A stretch of 64,000 bases of DNA, from positions 26,054 to 90,053 of the forward strand of contig JAQUNP010000002.1 in NCBI GenBank assembly GCA_028717565.1. Reading direction: 5' to 3'. Below are positions 3,062 through 59,642 of this stretch, one piece after another. The DNA comes from Patescibacteria group bacterium. GTDB lineage: Bacteria > Patescibacteriota > Kazan-3B-28. Below the pieces are notes generated by a model. It was not told where the DNA came from. It did no database searches and saw nothing but the letters and a program-made list of their open reading frames with translations. A program made the position numbers and the translations under genes. Each line of letters opens with the position of its first letter. Position 1 is the first letter of the stretch.

Positions 3062-3208
3062 TATGCCCTGTAGAGAATTTTAGAATGATTATCTAGATTT
3101 TACTTTTTCAGGGACATAGCCATGTTAGTGAAAGGTTGTTATCAGTTTGGAATTGTCGTGAATTTACGATAATCAGGTAAAATTTTCTAAAATCTTCTAC
3201 AGGGTATG
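3062..3208 (+). promoter_or_regulatory. Structured leader element copy 1 (mini-ORF MPCREF plus long hairpin) ending in the rplK start codon
   Basis: The 5' arm TATGCCCTGTAGAGAATTTTAGAA pairs with the 3' arm TTCTAAAATCTTCTACAGGGTATG (about 24 bp, one A.C mismatch). The inner stem is TGATTATC/GATAATCA. The same termini occur at 21115-21254 and 24328-24468. Confidence 0.7.
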
Positions 3209-7502: not shown

Positions 7503-7547
7503 CCCCATTTTGTTCGCCCAAAACGGGGTACAAAAGGGCGCCCCTAT

Positions 7548-7664
7548 CACAAAATGTTAACCAAAAACCAAAATCGTCCTTTCTGGATTTAACCGCAAAC
7601 TCGCCCAAGGGCTCAGACATGCTCATCCAGATCGGACGATTTTGCTATTGGTGGACACATTTTG
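7548..7664. repeat. R1a: short, divergent member of the R1 long-hairpin family
   Basis: Nested stems CAAAATGT/ACATTTTG, CAAAATCGTCC/GGACGATTTTG and TCTGGAT/ATCCAGA. The core is GCAAACTC-[GCCCaaGGGC]-TCAGACATGC, as in R1b and R1c. Confidence 0.6.
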
Positions 7665-7718
7665 CTCAAAGGGGGAGGGGGGTGAATAGAGAAGGGATTA
7701 TTGGTATAACAAAGGTGC

Positions 7719-21114: not shown

Positions 21115-21254
21115 TATGCCCCGTAGAGAATTTTAGAATGATTGCTGAAGATGTACTCTTAGACGGGCATGGGGGTGTAGAGACGGAGGTTTTTATAGCT
21201 GTGCATGAGAATGACAATCAAATAAAATTTTTCTAAAATCTTCTACAGGGTATG
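21115..21254 (+). promoter_or_regulatory. Structured leader element copy 2 (mini-ORF MPRREF) ending in the hisS start codon
   Basis: Same termini as copy 1 (TATGCCCCGTAGAGAATTTTAGAA ... TTCTAAAATCTTCTACAGGGTATG). Inner stem TGATTG/CAATCA. TATAAT at 21099-21104. Confidence 0.7.
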
Positions 21255-24327: not shown

Positions 24328-24468
24328 TATGCCCTGTAGAGAATTTTAGAATAATCAGCTGGAATGCCCCGCTTTTATTGCTAAATACTTTACGAACGGG
24401 CTGCAATGGGCCGGTGGGTTTGACGGCTGATCACAAATAACATTTTCTAAAATCTTCTAAAGGGTATG
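24328..24468 (+). promoter_or_regulatory. Structured leader element copy 3 (mini-ORF MPCREF) ending in the rpsU start codon
   Basis: TATGCCCTGTAGAGAATTTTAGAA ... TTCTAAAATCTTCTAAAGGGTATG. Inner stem ATCAGC/GCTGAT. Confidence 0.7.
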
Positions 24469-43231: not shown

Positions 43232-43702
43232 ATGACAGTTGAGACCGCAACAATGTATATTTCTAAAGAAGGTTTAGAAAAATTACAAAAGGAGCTATCC
43301 GAGCTTCAGGTTCAGCGTGTAGAGATTACTCAAAAGATTAAAGAGGCACGCGAATTTGGCGACCTATCAGAAAATGCTGAATATCAAGAGGCCAGAACCA
43401 AGCAGTCCTTTATTGAGGGCCGGATTGAAGAGATCGAAGCAATTTTGAAAAGCGCACAGGTAGTGGATGGCCGGAGTAAAGCTAAGGGTGTTATTGGCGT
43501 GGGTTCTGAAGTGGTAGTGAAGGCGAACGGTAGTGAGAAAACCTACAAATTGACCGGTTCTGATGAGGCCAGCCCGCTGGAAGGTAAAATTTCGCATGAG
43601 TCCCCGTTGGGTCAGGCATTGATGGGTCAAAAGGTAGGGGATAAGGTGACTTTGGAAACCCCAGATGGGAAGAAGGAGTACACGATTCTTAAAGTCGGTT
43701 AG
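43232..43702 (+). CDS. greA: Transcription elongation factor GreA
   Basis: TTGACA-17-TACAAT promoter at ~43135 and GGGAGG SD. AREFGDLSENAEY.EA. Confidence 0.92.
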   Translation: MTVETATMYISKEGLEKLQKELSELQVQRVEITQKIKEAREFGDLSENAEYQEARTKQSFIEGRIEEIEAILKSAQVVDGRSKAKGVIGVGSEVVVKANGSEKTYKLTGSDEASPLEGKISHESPLGQALMGQKVGDKVTLETPDGKKEYTILKVG

Positions 43703-43733
43703 TTCACAAACGCTAGCTGGCGTTTGATCCAGC

Positions 43734-43937
43734 CCACCTTTTTGCTTGTCCAAAAAGGTGGAGAAAAAGACACCCCGGTCGAGATTGGTCAGAGCCAAAG
43801 GAATTTGGTTCTGTTTGGCAAAGCAGCAAACTCTCCCTCTCCAGTTTGTGCCAAACTGGAGAGGGATCAGACATGCCTTGGCCAAAAACCAAACCAAATT
43901 CAAATTTGGCTTAGCTGACAATCTCTCCAACGGGGGA
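43734..43937. repeat. R1b: 11-bp-stem hairpin plus ~165-nt long imperfect hairpin
   Basis: CCACCTTTTTG cttgtc CAAAAAGGTGG, then a long hairpin with core GCAAACTC-[14-bp apical hairpin CCCTCTCCAGTTTG/CAAACTGGAGAGGG]-TCAGACATGC. Outside the apex it is nearly identical to 49879-50086. Confidence 0.75.
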
Positions 43938-43957
43938 GTATCATCTCTTCTTGTAGG

Positions 43958-44020
43958 ATTTTCAACGGCTCAAAATCCGCCGGCTGGCGGAGAGCCGTTG
44001 AGTTTTGGGCTTCCAGAGCC
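43958..44020 (+). repeat. R2 (long form): nested terminator-like hairpin plus conserved tail
   Basis: CAACGGCTC aaaa TCCGCC ggct GGCGGA GAGCCGTTG agTTTTGGGCTTCCAGAGC. About 60 of 63 nt are identical to 59145-59210 by eye. Confidence 0.7.
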
Positions 44021-44103
44021 ACTAATCTTGACGAAACCGGATAGGTGTGCTAAGTTGATGCTAGTAAATCTTACCGGCGTAGCCGGTGCACCTGGAGGGT
44101 AAG

Positions 44104-44367
44104 ATGCAGGTTCTGATCGATGTCCTCATCCTATATGGAATCCTTGTTCTCGTTGGTGTGGTGGTTACATGGCCGCGGCAGCGTAGGAACAAACACAACA
44201 AGGGGAAGGAGGAGCTGACAGTGGCAGACGTCGTACGCGCCTTTCCAGGCGCTTCGTGTGTCAGCTGCGGCCGCATCTTGGATCCGGACACTGGTTGTCC
44301 GATTCATGGATGGGCTACTACAGCCCCAGAAGCCGGGCTAGAGCCCGGCGACATTCTCGAATTGTAG
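44104..44367 (+). CDS. Small membrane protein with a C-terminal Cys/His cluster (GC-rich orphan)
   Basis: TTGACG-17-TAAGTT promoter (44027-44055) and GGAGGG SD. TM helix VLIDVLILYGILVLVGVVV, then CVSCG...CPIH. It is followed by the 10-bp GC hairpin GGGGGCCGGA/TCCGGCCCCC at 44395-44418. Confidence 0.55.
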   Translation: MQVLIDVLILYGILVLVGVVVTWPRQRRNKHNKGKEELTVADVVRAFPGASCVSCGRILDPDTGCPIHGWATTAPEAGLEPGDILEL

Positions 44368-44441
44368 AGTAAGCCTATCCCATCTGTCCCCGCGGGGGGC
44401 CGGATCCGTCCGGCCCCCTTATTCTTTGCTATAATGCGTTT

Positions 44442-49878: not shown

Positions 49879-50086
49879 CCACCTTTTTGCTTGTCCAAAA
49901 AGGTGGGGAAAAAGACACCCCGGTCGAGATTAGTCAGAGCCAAAGGATTTTGGTTCTGTTTGGCAAAGTAGCAAACTCTTCCGGTAGCTATTTTTAATAT
50001 ACAAGGAGACCGGAATCAGACATGCCTTTGCCAAAAACTAAACCAAATTCAGCTTTGGCTTAGCTGACAATCTCTCCAACGGGGGA
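49879..50086. repeat. R1c: near-identical copy of R1b with a different apical hairpin
   Basis: I count about 8 substitutions over ~170 aligned flank nt vs R1b. The apex is replaced by TTCCGGT ..23 nt.. ACCGGAA. The core GCAAACTC / TCAGACATGC is retained. Confidence 0.75.
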
Positions 50087-52309: not shown

Positions 52310-52412
52310 GACAGGAGCCCCGAAGCTTAAAACACTTCGGGAGCTCCTGTCCCCAACCTTGGTCACCAATTATCGCTCCCCCCAGGTGATAATCTGATGA
52401 CCAAGGTTGGGG
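52310..52412 (+). terminator. Two consecutive long hairpins after the PKD gene
   Basis: GACAGGAGCCCCGAAG ..9.. CTTCGGGAGCTCCTGTC, then CCCCAACCTTGGTCA ..32.. TGACCAAGGTTGGGG (15 bp perfect). There is no U-run. Confidence 0.45.
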
Positions 52413-52445
52413 ACACACACATATATAACTCAAGGGGTAAAGATT

Positions 52446-54653
52446 ATGAAGAATTTGCTGAAGGCCATTGGCCGAAAGACCTACTTTAGTTTAAAAAGAT
52501 TCGCTCGTGCGATTCGGTCTTTGAATATATTAACTTTTAGCGCTGTCTTTTTGGCTAGCGTTTTGGTGCCGTCTGCTGTTGTGGCTGAGGGCGACTTTGT
52601 ACGGGCGACGGTTACACCGTCTAGCTCAACTATTGAGCTGGGCCAGAGCAAGACCTTTTCAGTTATCACCAAGCTCAATGGTGTGACTACTACTGCTGAT
52701 AGCATCAATTGGTTTGTGAACAGTGCCCCGCAAAGTGGCACCACTTCAATGACCTACACGCCGGCTACGACAGGTGATTATCAGATACGGGCGAATGTTA
52801 CCAAGAATGGTATTGCCACTAGCTCCCAAGCCACTTTAAAAGTGACTGCGGCCGCGGATGATGATACTGATGAGCCAGAAGACGATGATGGCGATACCAG
52901 CGACCCGATTTATGTTCGAGCGGTAGTTACCCCGACTAGCTCAACAATTACTCAAGGTGAAAGCAAGACCTTTAGCGTGGTTGTAAAGAAGAACGGTAAT
53001 GTGACTGATGCTGATAGCATCAACTGGTTTGTGGATGGCGGAGCTCAAGCTAGCTACCAAAACCTCGTTCACATGACCTTGTCCCCAAGTGCTGGAACTT
53101 ACAGTATTCGAGTAAACGTGGTGGAAGAGGGCACGCCGGCTGTTAGTTATGCGACTTTAAAGGTTCTGCCAGCTAGCGACGACCCAGATCCCGACCCTGA
53201 CCCGGATCCTGATCCGGTTGTGGATGACTACTTAAGAGCGGTGATTACTCCAACTAGCTCAACTATTACTCAAGGTGAAACCAAGACCTTCAATTTGATT
53301 AGCAAGTTAAATGGCCTCACTACTACTCCAGACACAATTAAGTGGTTTGTAGACAACGATGAGCAAACCAGCTTCAGCGGCAAGAGCTATCTGACTCTGT
53401 CTCCAGCTAATGTGGGCACATACTACATTAGAGCCCTGGTGACCAAGACCGGTGCGAATGTGGCTCAATCCTATGCCACGTTGATTGTGAAAGCTGGTAC
53501 TACTCCTCCTGAGCCGCCAACCGAGGATTTCGTGAGAGCGGTGATTACTCCAACCAGCTCAACGGTGACGGTGGGTACATCCAAAACCTTTAATCTAATT
53601 ACTAAATTAAATGGCTATACCCACACAGCCGATACGATTCGCTGGTATGTGGATGGTGCGTTGCAAGCTAGTGCCAATGACCATACCTACATTACCTTGA
53701 ATCGTCCGGTGGGCACCTACAGCATTAATGCCAAGGCCTGGATCAACAGTGCGATGGGTCAAGACACGGCGACCTTGATCGTAAAAGATGTGGTGATTAC
53801 TGAACCGGATGACATTGAAGTAGTGATTATTCCGGATTTGAGAAGTGTGGGAACTTATGAAGAGACCAGTTACCGCGCTGTAGTTTACGACGAAAGCGGT
53901 GCGGACGTGACTGACGAGACCACGCTTGACTGGAGCATTTTAGATGGCAACGCTCTGATTTTGAGCGAAAACCATGACGATTTGCGGGTTCAGTCACGTG
54001 GCAACACTGGTACATTCGAAGACATCTACGTCTATGCTAGCCGCAATGGCAAGCACGACAGTGATAAGGCCTACTTGCAGGTGACTAGCGGATACACTCC
54101 GCCAACGCCAACTTGCGAGTACTACCTAACCGCGACTATGCATGGTGTGATTGAGGACGGCAGCTCTCCAAGTGCTGGTGATATTATTAAGTACACCGTC
54201 AAGGTGAACAACTACCGTCCATGCACACTGCATAATGTTAATCTAAAGATTGCTGTGCCACCTGCCCACACAACCTTTGTTGATACCAACTCAGCTTATG
54301 GCACACCGTATCTGTCTGGTGGCTACATCTACTGGAATGCGGGTACCTTGGTCAGCGGTCAAGAAAAAACGATGACTTTCCGAGTGAAGATCAACAGTGG
54401 CGTTCCGAAGGAAGGTTGGTATATCACGGCTTATGGTAGTGCTGGTGCGAGCGAGATCTCTACCTTCAACATCCAATCCAATACCATCTATGTACCGGGT
54501 ACAACCACTCCGATTACTCCGGATCTACCAAAGACAGGTGTGGACTGGATCGTGTTGCTTTTGATCACTTTGTCTTCACTGGGCTTAGCTACATTGACCT
54601 ATGCTGGGATGTATTCCCGCAAGCTGCAACGCGAAAGAATAGGTTACTTATAA
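52446..54653 (+). CDS. LPXTG-anchored surface protein with four tandem ~95-aa Ig-like repeats and a DUF11/CARDB-like domain
   Basis: AAGGGG SD and a signal/TM segment. Repeats begin (D/I/Y/F)(F/Y/L)VRA.(V/I)TP(S/T)SSTI. Linkers are acidic or PD-repeat. C-terminus: LPKTG (54525-54539), a hydrophobic helix, then RKLQRER. Confidence 0.8.
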   Translation: MKNLLKAIGRKTYFSLKRFARAIRSLNILTFSAVFLASVLVPSAVVAEGDFVRATVTPSSSTIELGQSKTFSVITKLNGVTTTADSINWFVNSAPQSGTTSMTYTPATTGDYQIRANVTKNGIATSSQATLKVTAAADDDTDEPEDDDGDTSDPIYVRAVVTPTSSTITQGESKTFSVVVKKNGNVTDADSINWFVDGGAQASYQNLVHMTLSPSAGTYSIRVNVVEEGTPAVSYATLKVLPASDDPDPDPDPDPDPVVDDYLRAVITPTSSTITQGETKTFNLISKLNGLTTTPDTIKWFVDNDEQTSFSGKSYLTLSPANVGTYYIRALVTKTGANVAQSYATLIVKAGTTPPEPPTEDFVRAVITPTSSTVTVGTSKTFNLITKLNGYTHTADTIRWYVDGALQASANDHTYITLNRPVGTYSINAKAWINSAMGQDTATLIVKDVVITEPDDIEVVIIPDLRSVGTYEETSYRAVVYDESGADVTDETTLDWSILDGNALILSENHDDLRVQSRGNTGTFEDIYVYASRNGKHDSDKAYLQVTSGYTPPTPTCEYYLTATMHGVIEDGSSPSAGDIIKYTVKVNNYRPCTLHNVNLKIAVPPAHTTFVDTNSAYGTPYLSGGYIYWNAGTLVSGQEKTMTFRVKINSGVPKEGWYITAYGSAGASEISTFNIQSNTIYVPGTTTPITPDLPKTGVDWIVLLLITLSSLGLATLTYAGMYSRKLQRERIGYL

Positions 54654-57793: not shown

Positions 57794-58940
57794 GCGAGTT
57801 CTAACCTGGTTTTTGGTTATAGCAATGCTAGTGCCTGCTCTGACGGTACGAGCTGATCTTTTGAGTGACAAAACCAGTGAATTAAATAATTTACGCAAAG
57901 AGATTGAAAAGCAACAGTCGGCTTTAGATAGTGCCAAGAAAAGGTCTTTGACTCTACAAAACCAGATCGACATTTTGGACCAACAGATCTCTGTGGCCGA
58001 GTTGCAGCTCCAGGCCCTAACTGCGCAGATTGATCAGACCAACCTGCAGATGGATAGTGTGAATGCGGATTTAGTAGATGCGGAAGTACAAATTTATGAA
58101 AAGAAGCGGGTCTTGCGAGAGGCCATCAAAGTATCGTATATGCGCCGACAAACTGGGTTATTGGAGATGCTGGTGGGCTCTTCTGATCTTTCAGAATTGA
58201 TGAGCCAGTTGGAATATATTACTGCGATTGAGGGCAGAATCTCCAATGGTTTGGCAGTACTAAAAGAACTGAATGAAACTTTGGCAGCGAAAAAAGGTGA
58301 GCTGGAAAAACTTGATCAGGAGCTCAAGGAGTTGGCTAATGCCAAGCAGTTGGAGCAAAACAGCTTAGCGGTGCAGGTCACGGCTAAGGACTCCATGCTA
58401 CAGGACTCAAAGCTCACAGAAGCTGAGTACCAAAAGCGGTTGCAGGAAGCGGTAGCAGAACAGCAGCGACTGCAGCAAGAAATTGCCGCATTGGCTAAAA
58501 ATACTCGGAAGGGAGAACTCAACCAAGGCAATTTTGCTTTGCAGTGGCCAGTGCCATCGCGACAAATTTCCGCTGGTTTTCATGATGCGGATTATGCAGC
58601 TAGGTTCGGTATGCAACACAATGCGATAGATATTCCCACTCCGCAAGGTACGCCAATTCGGGCACCTGCTGACGCATTTGTGTCAAAGATCCGGTTCGAT
58701 GGTTCTAATGCTTATTCGTATATTGTGCTCGATCACGGTAACGGTATGGTGACTGTTTACGGACACGTCAGTTCAGTCGCTGTGTCGGTGGGGCAATTTG
58801 TGCCAGTTGGATCGGTCATTGGCGGTAGTGGCGGCACGCCAGGGAGCACTGGTGCGGGTTGGTTGACGACTGGTCCTCATTTACACTTTGAGGTTTGGTT
58901 GGATGGGCAGGCGAGAAATCCTCTAGCGTATTTGTCGTAA
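57786..58940 (+). CDS. Coiled-coil M23 (LytM-domain) peptidase, EnvC-like partner of FtsEX
   Basis: Signal MFKRVLTWFLVIAMLVPALTVRA, a long coiled coil, and LytM motifs HNAIDI and GPHLHFEV. It overlaps the ftsX end. Confidence 0.85.
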   Translation: MFKRVLTWFLVIAMLVPALTVRADLLSDKTSELNNLRKEIEKQQSALDSAKKRSLTLQNQIDILDQQISVAELQLQALTAQIDQTNLQMDSVNADLVDAEVQIYEKKRVLREAIKVSYMRRQTGLLEMLVGSSDLSELMSQLEYITAIEGRISNGLAVLKELNETLAAKKGELEKLDQELKELANAKQLEQNSLAVQVTAKDSMLQDSKLTEAEYQKRLQEAVAEQQRLQQEIAALAKNTRKGELNQGNFALQWPVPSRQISAGFHDADYAARFGMQHNAIDIPTPQGTPIRAPADAFVSKIRFDGSNAYSYIVLDHGNGMVTVYGHVSSVAVSVGQFVPVGSVIGGSGGTPGSTGAGWLTTGPHLHFEVWLDGQARNPLAYLS

Positions 58941-58966
58941 GCGCTAGACGGCGCTTCAACCCGTCG

Positions 58967-59147
58967 TCACTTTTTTAGAAAAAGTGACATAAAAATCCTC
59001 CGCGGTCGAAAATAGCTGTTCATCTCAAATAACAGCTGCTTTATGCTTATCACCAAACTCGCTACGCTCAAACATGGGCACGCTTAAATGCAGCTGTTAT
59101 TTGGATTCAAGACGCTATTTTCTCCGACGCTCGACTAGGAAGGAGAT
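58967..59147. repeat. R1-like composite hairpin repeat (copy D), related to 19140-19320
   Basis: GTCACTTTTTT aga AAAAAGTGAC hairpin, then CAAATAACAGCTGC (59026-39) paired with GCAGCTGTTATTTG (59090-103). The core-like segment is CCAAACTC gctacgc TCAAACATGG. Confidence 0.5.
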
Positions 59148-59210
59148 TTGGCAACGGCTCAAAATCCGCCAGCTGGCGGAGAGCCGTTGAATTTTGGGCT
59201 TCCAGAGCTG
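59145..59210 (+). repeat. R2 (long form), second copy
   Basis: CAACGGCTC aaaa TCCGCC agct GGCGGA GAGCCGTTG aaTTTTGGGCTTCCAGAGC. Confidence 0.7.
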
Positions 59211-59277
59211 TTTTCGGGTTGACAAGACGGCTCGATTTGATAGAATATGTGTATCAGTATTGTACGTGGAGGGTGAT

Positions 59278-59541
59278 ATGGCTAGCACATTGGTGGTGCC
59301 CGGGGCGAAGTTTTACGTGGGCGAAGAACTGTGGTCTGTCATTGATGGTCCACATCAGACCTGGTGTGAACAGCTGGCGATGGAAGCGCGAATTGTCACG
59401 CTTAGCTGCAACCACAACCACGAAACCATCCGGCTGGCCTTTCTGGGGTCGGCTGGTTCATTCCGGGTCTATGAGGTCTATCTCGACGACCCAGAGATAG
59501 GGCCTGTCGAGAGCGTCAGGTTCTCACACCTGACCCTTTAA
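59278..59541 (+). CDS. Small orphan protein
   Basis: TTGACA-16-TAGAAT promoter (59219-59246) and GGAGGG SD; 87 aa. It is followed by the hairpin GGGCTCAAGT c ACTTGGGCCC plus a T-rich run. I recognise no motif. Confidence 0.5.
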   Translation: MASTLVVPGAKFYVGEELWSVIDGPHQTWCEQLAMEARIVTLSCNHNHETIRLAFLGSAGSFRVYEVYLDDPEIGPVESVRFSHLTL

Positions 59542-59642
59542 CCCATAACTCCGTCTGCCCCAAAAGCAAAAGGGGGCTCAAGTCACTTGGGCCCCTGCTT
59601 TATTTTTCTGCTACAATCAATGCAAGAGGTGGGAGAAAGTTT

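Follow-up and report, generated by a model that had tools for sequence, protein, structure and literature searches.

The hairpin element that lies directly 3′ of greA in a 64,000-nt stretch of a Patescibacteria group bacterium genome (contig JAQUNP010000002.1, positions 26,054 to 90,053; hereafter the window) is a member of an undescribed, cross-phylum family of intergenic palindromic repeats of about 170-260 nt. Two of its features were unexpected: the core of the element is identical across phylum boundaries, and it bears the signature of a structure that is read on single-stranded DNA (ssDNA). That we are dealing with a repeat family rather than with an element specific to one gene is hardly in doubt. 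The fuller explanation, to which we give even chances, is that of a dispersed palindromic DNA repeat of the REPIN/ERIC/Correia kind that is recognised by its shape as ssDNA.

In the family unit, a 5′ hairpin (hairpin B), one arm of which has a run of pyrimidines and the other a run of purines, is joined by a purine-rich linker to a long hairpin that a C-run and a G-run close. Near the tip of the long hairpin, an asymmetric internal loop, RAACTC / TCRRACA, encloses a small hairpin whose length varies freely. We constructed two covariance models, R1 for the core domain and R2 for hairpin B plus linker. Across the 64 kb, R2 retrieves exactly four copies at 25-45 bits, the next best match scoring 13 bits, and the composite core motif occurs 3 times where 100 shuffles give an expectation of 0. 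All four copies are on the + strand, start 0-56 nt past the stop codons of rplL, greA, secA and an M23 peptidase gene (the first base of the rplL copy directly follows the stop codon) and stand alone, unpaired with other copies; about 4 kb of further sequence from the same genome held no additional copy. The gene preceding the copy that gives the element its name here encodes a protein with Pfam GreA domains and 100% identity to an NCBI GreA, the closest named relatives of which carry the label candidate division Kazan.

In the greA copy (Table 1), the unpaired cores GCAAACTC (43826-43833) and TCAGACATGC (43867-43876) stand on either side of a perfect apical hairpin of 33 nt (43834-43866). The greA and secA copies are near-identical apart from this hairpin, which is wholly swapped: they display 88-92% identity over the two segments (130 and 78 nt) flanking it, and the surrounding DNA is unrelated. 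A nested repeat at the tip was considered and rejected because both apical inserts are unique in the window. The short hairpin abutting the greA copy on its 5′ side falls outside the recently duplicated unit, and a different hairpin occupies the equivalent position at secA. The copy 3′ of the M23 peptidase gene is diverged, with a local match to R1 and an R2 score of 25.5 bits (E = 2e-4); its cores read CCAAACTC-GCTACGC-TCAAACATGG (59053-59077), and the closing G-C pair of the core is switched to C-G. An earlier, sequence-only reading of this DNA had described a hairpin element of about 200 nt 3′ of greA, which is real, every string that it quoted being found in its place. That reading was right that the apical hairpin is perfect and flanked by the cores but gave it 14 bp instead of 15; it recognised the recurrence of the element at 49879 and at rplL but placed the rplL copy at 7548-7664, short of its full span, which also has the 5′ hairpin and linker; and it missed the M23 copy, which was found by the two covariance models. 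The core strings that it took to be conserved do recur, the actual consensus over the family being looser: stem / RAACUC / hairpin / UCRRACA / stem.

Table 1. Copies of the element and adjoining repeats in the window
Feature	Position	Strand	Remarks
Variable short hairpin abutting the greA copy	43711..43733	+	reads GCTGGCGTTTGATCCAGC, then CCACCTTTTT
Hairpin B, greA copy	43734..43761	+	11 bp; CCACCTTTTTG-CTTGTC-CAAAAAGGTGG; model R2 44.6 bits
Purine-rich linker, greA copy	43762..43772	+	AGAAAAAGACA
Long imperfect hairpin, greA copy	43773..43936	+	closed by CCCC/GGGGG; basal loop GGTCGA / TCTCCAAC
Core domain, greA copy	43826..43876	+	model R1 47.8 bits; apical insert unique in the window
secA copy	49879..50085	+	hairpin B 49879-49906; long hairpin 49918-50085; cores 49971-50025
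rplL copy	7503..7675	+	hairpin B 7503-7528; linker 7529-7540; long hairpin 7541-7675; cores 7595-7622
Fourth, diverged copy, 3′ of M23 peptidase gene	58966..59130	+	hairpin B 58966-58988; long hairpin about 59002-59130
57-nt terminator-like repeat, separate unit	43963..44019	+	about 25 nt 3′ of the greA copy
Second 57-nt terminator-like repeat	59152..59208	+	96% identical; 3′ of the fourth copy

The same element is present well beyond Patescibacteria. One genome per species was scanned with the two cores and the closing G-run as query, for which we estimate about 16 chance matches; the scan yielded 38 loci, of which five or six look like chance. The others are from the Betaproteobacteria Curvibacter, Pseudorhodoferax, Hydrogenophaga, Ramlibacter, Hylemonella, Zoogloea, Aromatoleum/Azoarcus, Sulfurirhabdus and Rhodocyclaceae, together with one metagenome-assembled genome (MAG) of Nitrospirota. 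An identical 18-nt core is common to the element of the candidate phyla radiation (CPR) lineage analysed here and to the elements of Comamonadaceae, Rhodocyclaceae, Ralstonia and the Nitrospirota MAG, the apparent exactness of core conservation being due in part to the use of exact strings as the search query. More than 50 copies, many of them with variant cores, are retrieved from these loci by R1, and 53 core domains pass E = 1e-4. The architecture is common to 32 of the 38 genome hits, and most betaproteobacterial copies have it in full, including hairpin B with a GCTTCGCC-type loop and a purine linker ending in GCGACCCC; the copies of Aromatoleum/Azoarcus and Nitrospirota keep the long hairpin and the cores and are missing the 5′ module, and in Ralstonia the 5′ module alone was matched initially. 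Annotated public records leave the element unlabelled. A metagenome scan with the pattern GGTCGA...CAAACTC...TCARACATG, which is too short, gave 97 loci, nearly all of them due to chance; the exceptions are L064 and L119, which are real, and L138, an ambiguous case.

Copies in Proteobacteria form tail-to-tail and head-to-head pairs and mosaic clusters with small REP-like repeats. A composite of about 900 bp occurs in five repeats in Pseudorhodoferax, tandem copies are found in Sulfurirhabdus, and in Variovorax each gene of a convergent pair is followed by one copy. With respect to the upstream gene, 31 copies have the same and 19 the opposite orientation (by crude GC3-based gene calls), so that a strict rule by which the element lies 3′ of a gene in sense fails in Proteobacteria. 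By contrast, all seven CPR copies start 0-70 nt past a stop codon on the strand of the gene. Among the CPR relatives, the copy behind greA is absent from one with 88% GreA identity. The interval between rplL and tgt is occupied in the window, in L158 (74% Tgt identity) and in L160/L161 (62%), and lacks the element in L157 (73%), where two ordinary terminator hairpins are found instead. A second copy of L160, located after secF, matches the window rplL copy in the inner arm and core, and the greA type in hairpin B and linker; thus, modules have been exchanged between copies.

Some further features of the CPR relatives should be recorded. At L158 7100-7155, the rplL-site copy has an insertion of about 50 nt in hairpin B, on the 3′ arm; the outer stems of this copy are retained, while the cores have diverged and read GGAATTC / TTCAGTTCC. 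A small conserved hairpin (TTGGCTTCGCCAA / TTTGCTTCGCAAA / TTGGCAAAAGCCAA) lies between the element and the ribosome-binding site of the next gene at L160 9972-10000 and 20620-20650 and at L158 7308-7345; the window rplL copy is without it.

The fold of the element is maintained. In a set of 48 distinct core domains, 88.5% of the stem cells are paired and 17 of 18 pairs are altered on both sides (147 cells); none of 500 shuffles reaches the observed pairing values, and the covariation score is 0.45, compared with 0.13 or less for slid partners. For the three copies at the rplL site, 20 of 50 predicted pairs are compensated. The anatomy put forward in the sequence-only reading, that is, conserved unpaired cores combined with variable complementary stems, is thus borne out by stems that covary strongly. 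Folded as RNA in the sense direction, the greA copy reaches -96.4 kcal/mol (z = -8.2 against shuffles), the corresponding z values for the secA and rplL copies being -6.6 and -5.25; the minus strand of the greA copy reaches -103.3 kcal/mol.

With regard to the strand on which this fold is formed, the energy, mismatch and tip signals all agree on the one antisense to the neighbouring genes. In 43 of 54 copies, this strand has the more stable fold, by a mean of 4.9 kcal/mol (Wilcoxon p = 1.6e-5, although the strand p-values should not be taken at face value because the copies compared share kinship). Under RNA parameters, it is the more stable strand in 6 of 7 CPR copies, with 25 wobble pairs on the minus strand versus 12 on the plus strand. 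The stem cells in the sense reading include 19 of the A.C / C.A type, which become wobble pairs in antisense, and 8 of the G.U type, which become A.C-type mismatches; the 43 pyrimidine-pyrimidine cells turn into G.A-type (purine-purine) cells and the 8 purine-purine cells into pyrimidine-pyrimidine ones. Wobble pairs make up just about 3% of stem cells. As for the tips, 19 of about 30 distinct ones have the form C(TNC)G in sense, i.e., C(GNA)G in antisense, and the 7-nt tips GCTTCGC, GCTGCGC and GCTACGC correspond on the complementary strand to d(GCGAAGC), d(GCGCAGC) and d(GCGTAGC), respectively. According to a review by its discoverers, the d(GCGNAGC) mini-hairpin is formed by GNA loops only and melts at 70-76 °C, and the natural GNA mini-hairpins cited there belong to ssDNA signals, namely, the G4 origin, RSF1010 ssiA and the N4 promoters (PMC13037366). 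UNCG tetraloops, considered as evidence of RNA, were dropped because the palindromic register gives TNC triloops, which are GNA on the other strand. Tip length ranges from 7 to 37 nt, which argues for a folded single strand, given that nothing else would tolerate such variation.

We propose that the folding strand, when single-stranded or extruded as a cruciform, would be recognised by its shape, the conserved loop providing the sequence-specific contact, and that an enzyme encoded elsewhere, either HUH/Y1 transposase-like or a structure-specific recombinase, would copy the element to new intergenic sites. Mobility is suggested by the presence of near-identical copies in unrelated flanks, by presence and absence between relatives, and by the exchange of modules. 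A hairpin-binding transposase is our tentative candidate for the mobiliser, one that we lean somewhat against. The uniform orientation of the CPR copies might come from replication polarity or from selection against the orientation that stops transcription. Any transcript that runs across a copy must form a very stable hairpin, so that an effect on the stability or processing of mRNA 3′ ends is to be expected, as with REP and ERIC; such an effect could account for the lasting occupancy of the rplL-tgt site and for the terminators present there in L157. A more specific version, which we consider rather improbable, casts the element, working like an attC site or a REPIN but built differently, as the recognition site of an uncharacterised structure-specific ssDNA enzyme, the system being common to this Patescibacteria lineage and Betaproteobacteria. 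The 13-nt asymmetric loop would then be the contact, the tip would be free and GNA-capped, and the separable 5′ module would end other elements too; if true, this version implies either that the system passed between an epibiont and the organisms that are its likely hosts or that the two have a recognition factor in common.

Several observations weigh against recognition of a mobile element as ssDNA. With DNA energy parameters, both strands of the CPR copies are almost equally stable, the wobble-pair asymmetry on its own gives p = 0.05, and the kinship of the compared copies inflates the strand statistics. Arm-to-arm correction in palindromic DNA can also produce compensated stems, so that covariation alone is no proof that the fold is used, because correction could give an equal pattern without selection. 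Among loci with a single orientation, the + strand of the element is on the G-rich strand in 18 of 23 (loci that are not independent), and the folding strand in CPR genomes is the leading-strand template; the fold signals favour the strand opposite the G-rich one, and an orientation bias of the IS608 type would make the G-rich strand the active one. No candidate for a mobilising enzyme was found beside any copy, the part of this genome that was analysed being the window plus about 4 kb, and the open reading frames (ORFs) next to proteobacterial copies have no Pfam match. Finally, occupancy of the rplL-tgt site extends to lineages in which Tgt identity is only 62-74%, the stems being compensated, and a host function or a strong site preference fits this occupancy better than a purely selfish resident does.

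The latter point leads to the best of the alternatives, namely, that copies, whatever their origin, are kept by the host as boundary elements for their action at gene ends. We regard it as a fairly unlikely account of the element taken as a whole, although such a role is compatible with a mobile, shape-recognised repeat and the two may coexist. In the antisense direction, the long hairpin and, after it, the complement of the linker, which is U-rich, would be a barrier to antisense transcription, whether convergent or spurious; in the sense direction, the hairpin would make the stabilities of upstream and downstream mRNA segments independent of each other, as REP/BIME do. Apart from the persistence of the rplL-tgt copies across deep divergence, for which L157 substitutes ordinary terminators, this explanation accommodates the placement of copies between a stop codon and the next promoter and the copy behind either gene of the Variovorax convergent pair. 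In every CPR copy, the minus strand has a run of U4-5 located 4-6 nt past the base of the long hairpin, which fits as well; however, this run is not adjacent to the stem, and a terminator scan flagged the long hairpin on neither strand, nor is there a U-tract 3′ of it on the + strand. Close relatives lack the element at the same sites, and a boundary role leaves both the 13-nt loop conserved across phyla and the conserved hairpin B unexplained.

A functional RNA transcribed in sense was the preference of the sequence-only reading. It would make the element part of the 3′ untranslated region (UTR) of greA, secA, rplL and the M23 peptidase gene, either a structured cis-element or a small RNA derived from the 3′ UTR, with a loop that binds a protein or RNase and stems that protect the 3′ end. 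The consistent position of the seven CPR copies behind genes and on their strand, the very stable fold predicted for the sense transcript, the covarying stems and the conserved loops all agree with it, as do the facts that the rplL-tgt interval lacks a canonical terminator, which puts the element within an rplL-tgt transcript, and that two ordinary terminators take its site in L157. Nonetheless, we judge such an RNA to be distinctly unlikely. The direction of the genes is confounded with that of replication: GC skew on the + strand of the window is +0.21 overall (0.12-0.24 per 8 kb; +0.15 to +0.25 in related CPR contigs) and nearly all genes are on +, for which reason the sense orientation of the four copies is inseparable from replication-strand bias. 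In Proteobacteria, orientation is mixed and inverted pairs are common. It is the antisense strand that folds better and bears the wobble and G.A-type mismatches, and the GC-UNC-GC tips, poor as RNA hairpins, are ideal as DNA on the opposite strand. On the + strand, the small hairpin together with the T-run of hairpin B is flagged as terminator-like in the greA and secA copies, in either case at the 5′ edge, and the two mRNAs may therefore stop before the long hairpin. Moreover, Rfam offers no support: in Rfam 15, the window gave three tRNAs only at the gathering threshold, a permissive scan of 43700-43960 gave generic miRNA-hairpin matches only (28 bits or less versus thresholds of 80-117), no family matched the element on either strand, and eight proteobacterial loci had no match.

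An antisense structured RNA, in which the minus strand would act as a non-coding or ribozyme-like RNA with the core UGUYYGA-hairpin-GAGUU, would explain the strand asymmetry in fold energy and wobble pairs seen with RNA parameters, and, as read from the sequence, tandem G.A / A.G pairs adjoin the tip hairpin on the minus strand. One promoter-like site downstream points into the greA copy, but no comparable promoter is present at the secA copy, nor, by eye, at the others. The triloop tips closed by 2 bp are weak in RNA, wobble pairs are scarce, Rfam has no match on either strand, and our reading of both strands by eye against RNA motifs (hammerhead with CUGANGA/GAAA, k-turn, sarcin-ricin, twister, pistol and hatchet) found none that fits the core. 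We therefore consider an antisense RNA very improbable. Least credible of all is an ssDNA initiation signal (a G4- or RSF1010-type ssi or an N4-type hairpin promoter serving as a primase or polymerase landing site on SSB-coated DNA): GNA mini-hairpins are known from such signals (PMC13037366) and the element combines several hairpins with a conserved stretch that is unpaired and contains CTG on the folding strand, but there are dozens of chromosomal copies in intergenic mosaics with no evident need for special priming, the folding strand is the leading-strand template in CPR genomes, and no plasmid or phage link was found for the CPR copy. An origin from phages or plasmids was likewise rejected, as blastn of the CPR copy against phage records and plasmids gave no match and the core-pattern matches on viral contigs look like chance in coding DNA.

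Other repeats occur around the element in the window. The 57-nt terminator-like repeat (CAACGGCTCAAAATCCGCCRGCTGGCGGAGAGCCGTTGARTTTTGGGCTTCCAGAGC) accompanies two of the four copies, which are themselves strongly diverged from one another. Judged by gene offsets, a contig of the same strain from a Logan assembly, L163, begins at window position ~59162, inside the 57-nt repeat beside the fourth copy, which suggests that these repeats break short-read assemblies. The junctions at 43700-44440 and 58940-59640, each with an element and a terminator-like repeat, coincide with a break of synteny relative to L039 10471-11111. In this relative, greA, an ORF of 97 aa and an S41 peptidase gene lie side by side; in the window, about 15 kb with lysS-like, serS, secA, PKD protein and M23 peptidase genes separates greA from the S41 gene. 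Segmental duplication of the element together with a 93-aa ORF was rejected: the two junction ORFs are not homologous, and only the element and the 57-nt repeat are common to the junctions. A second, unrelated repeat family has units of about 150 nt at 3062-3208, 21115-21254 and 24328-24468, with inverted ends TATGCCCTGTAGAGAATTTTAGAA ... TTCTAAAATCTTCTACAGGGTATG and GTAG beside the palindrome, the tag described for REP/REPIN; going by this tag, the CPR genome may encode a RAYT-type enzyme. In addition, the window contains an ORF (52407-54653; 748 aa) with four tandem repeats of about 315 nt at 52603-53590, which are 69-89% identical and presumably represent repeated protein domains, and a cluster of three tRNA genes at 2189-2563 (Rfam 58-71 bits).

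Similarly, the surroundings of the proteobacterial copies deserve mention. In Pasteurella multocida (NZ_CP020346), the dapF/DUF484 interval (L043 3003-3425) holds an unannotated palindromic element of about 420 bp without the core motif, the two ends of which consist of a hairpin B + linker + GGCGACCC module 86% identical to the Curvibacter version; thus, the 5′ module is found in elements of different kinds. In Betaproteobacteria (L042 3200-3480, L005, L001 and L029), the element is accompanied by small REP-like repeats (GGGCCWTCGCTKCGCTCGGCC); on the other strand, they read GGCCGA-GCGCAGC-GATGGCC, with the GA-GCGNAGC-GA centre found in the core of the element, and a boxC-like palindrome (CCCTCTCCC..GGGAGAGGG) lies between such repeats in Variovorax. 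The 60-80 nt that precede the 5′ module in high-GC genomes are strikingly G+T-rich and C-poor (for example, L044 2920-3000 and L029 6150-6230) and may belong to the repeat unit. Small accessory genes are found near some copies: in Sulfurirhabdus (L026 2336-3966), two direct copies enclose a DUF2442 gene (E = 5e-23); in Zoogloea (L033 353-2010), two direct copies enclose a weakly Xre-like ORF; and in Variovorax (L042 2478-2950), higBA is directly upstream of a copy. Anecdotally, they resemble cassettes between recombination sites. A neighbouring transposase was sought and rejected, given that no Pfam match, one weak Xre-like match excepted, was obtained for the ORFs of 184-187 aa beside copies (L007, L017 and L018) or for seven other ORFs, which are probably all spurious.

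Genomes of Patescibacteria are small and streamlined, and dispersed repeats are not expected there, but the CPR lineage analysed here carries at least two families of them. Should the family be mobile, it would be a sign that these ultra-small bacteria exchange genetic material with the organisms in whose company they live, and it would point to an undescribed enzyme that recognises hairpins. On the practical side, the element yields spurious ORFs in high-GC genomes and probably breaks assemblies, as a second, independent assembly of this strain stops beside the fourth copy; models R1 and R2 would allow it to be annotated. More generally, conserved loops and covarying stems are insufficient to call an RNA, considering that here the asymmetry of wobble pairs and mismatches and the type of loop pointed the opposite way.

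How, then, does the element compare with known repeats and recombination sites? The literature is of little help, in that the core strings turn up only as chance primer matches and we found no paper on CPR repeats. E. coli genomes carry ERIC, REP and boxC; when 5,426 complete ones were searched by blastn (word size 11) with 43705-43940, nothing matched at E <= 1e-3. Both ERIC/IRU and Correia (NEMIS) elements are imperfect intergenic palindromes of 100-160 nt; they are transcribed together with neighbouring genes and form long RNA hairpins that alter mRNA processing and stability. An ERIC/Correia-like palindromic repeat was the conservative option of the sequence-only reading and is the closer of its two proposals. 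However, those families are lineage-restricted, whereas the element spans Patescibacteria, Beta- and Gammaproteobacteria and Nitrospirota. Correia/NEMIS elements, known from Neisseria only, have 26-nt terminal inverted repeats and duplicate TA; membership is disfavoured because the window copies have neither terminal inverted repeats nor target-site duplications. Specifically, the unit runs from CCACCTTTTTG... to ...CAACGGGGGA in the greA and secA copies, with ends that are not mutually inverted, and the flanks of these copies, ..CCAGC| |GTATC.. and ..CGATG| |TTAAT.., respectively, are without duplicated bases and without a common motif. Inverted 5′ modules at both ends are found only in the composite tail-to-tail pairs and in the Pasteurella element. 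The sequence-only reading would have taken dozens of near-identical copies in both orientations with target-site duplications as the mark of a miniature inverted-repeat transposable element; copies are indeed many, near-identical within a genome and present in both orientations, but the duplications are missing. IS200/IS605-derived PATEs have similar subterminal hairpins at either end and insert 3′ of a fixed tetra- or pentanucleotide; in the element, hairpin B, the long hairpin and the tip are dissimilar, and the bases 5′ of the CPR copies vary (CAGC, GATG, TAA, TAG and CGTC).

The ssDNA signals of G4 oric, RSF1010 ssiA and the N4 early promoters have several hairpins with d(GCGNAGC)-type tips, as the element does (PMC13037366), but they are single sites on phage or plasmid replicons, whereas the element is multi-copy and chromosomal and its CPR copies have no phage or plasmid link. 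REP sequences are defined as palindromes 20-40 nt long with a GTAG or CGTC tag at the foot (PMC3733652); the unit described here is 170-260 nt long, and neither tag is conserved at the foot of any of its hairpins (hairpin B, long hairpin and tip). REP/BIME/REPIN have been described as dispersed extragenic palindromes that fold into hairpins, often form alternating mosaics and are without terminal inverted repeats or target-site duplications; located at gene 3′ ends, with effects on mRNA stability, REP/REPIN are thought to be handled as ssDNA by a hairpin-binding Y1 HUH enzyme (PMC3116915, PMC2817692, PMC3479197). The likeness is considerable: the proteobacterial elements sit among REP-like repeats with the same GA-GCGNAGC-GA centre, and extragenic clusters of alternating orientation, as in BIMEs, are found in Proteobacteria, although not in the CPR window. 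Yet the conserved sequence of REPs is in the stems, whereas that of the element lies in an asymmetric loop, which is unpaired, and in a separate 5′ module. In REPIN-RAYT systems, the repeats flank a single-copy RAYT (Y1 HUH transposase) gene; no RAYT gene was seen among the Pfam-searched ORFs next to the proteobacterial copies.

Integron attC sites are recognised by their fold, with one active strand, unpaired conserved bases, covarying stems and a terminal structure that ranges from a 3-nt loop to a long hairpin. The element resembles them in its strand-specific fold, conserved unpaired bases and variable terminal structure, and the DUF2442 gene between direct copies in L026 adds to the likeness, which is one of working, not of membership. 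The R″/R′ boxes of attC (RYYYAAC / GTTRRRY) are absent from the element, the base of which has no complementary AAC/GTT but consists of CCCC/GGGGG; the accompanying loop is GGTCGA/TCTCCAAC in copies from CPR and GGT/ACA in those from Proteobacteria. Furthermore, the element is two to three times longer than attC, no integrase was seen, and the window copies flank housekeeping genes rather than cassettes. Because it carries neither the REP tag nor the R″/R′ boxes, neither terminal inverted repeats nor target-site duplications, and matches neither the E. coli repeats nor Rfam, we do not place the element in any named family. Judged by these comparisons, it behaves most like REP/BIME/REPIN, with a recognition logic like that of integron attC.

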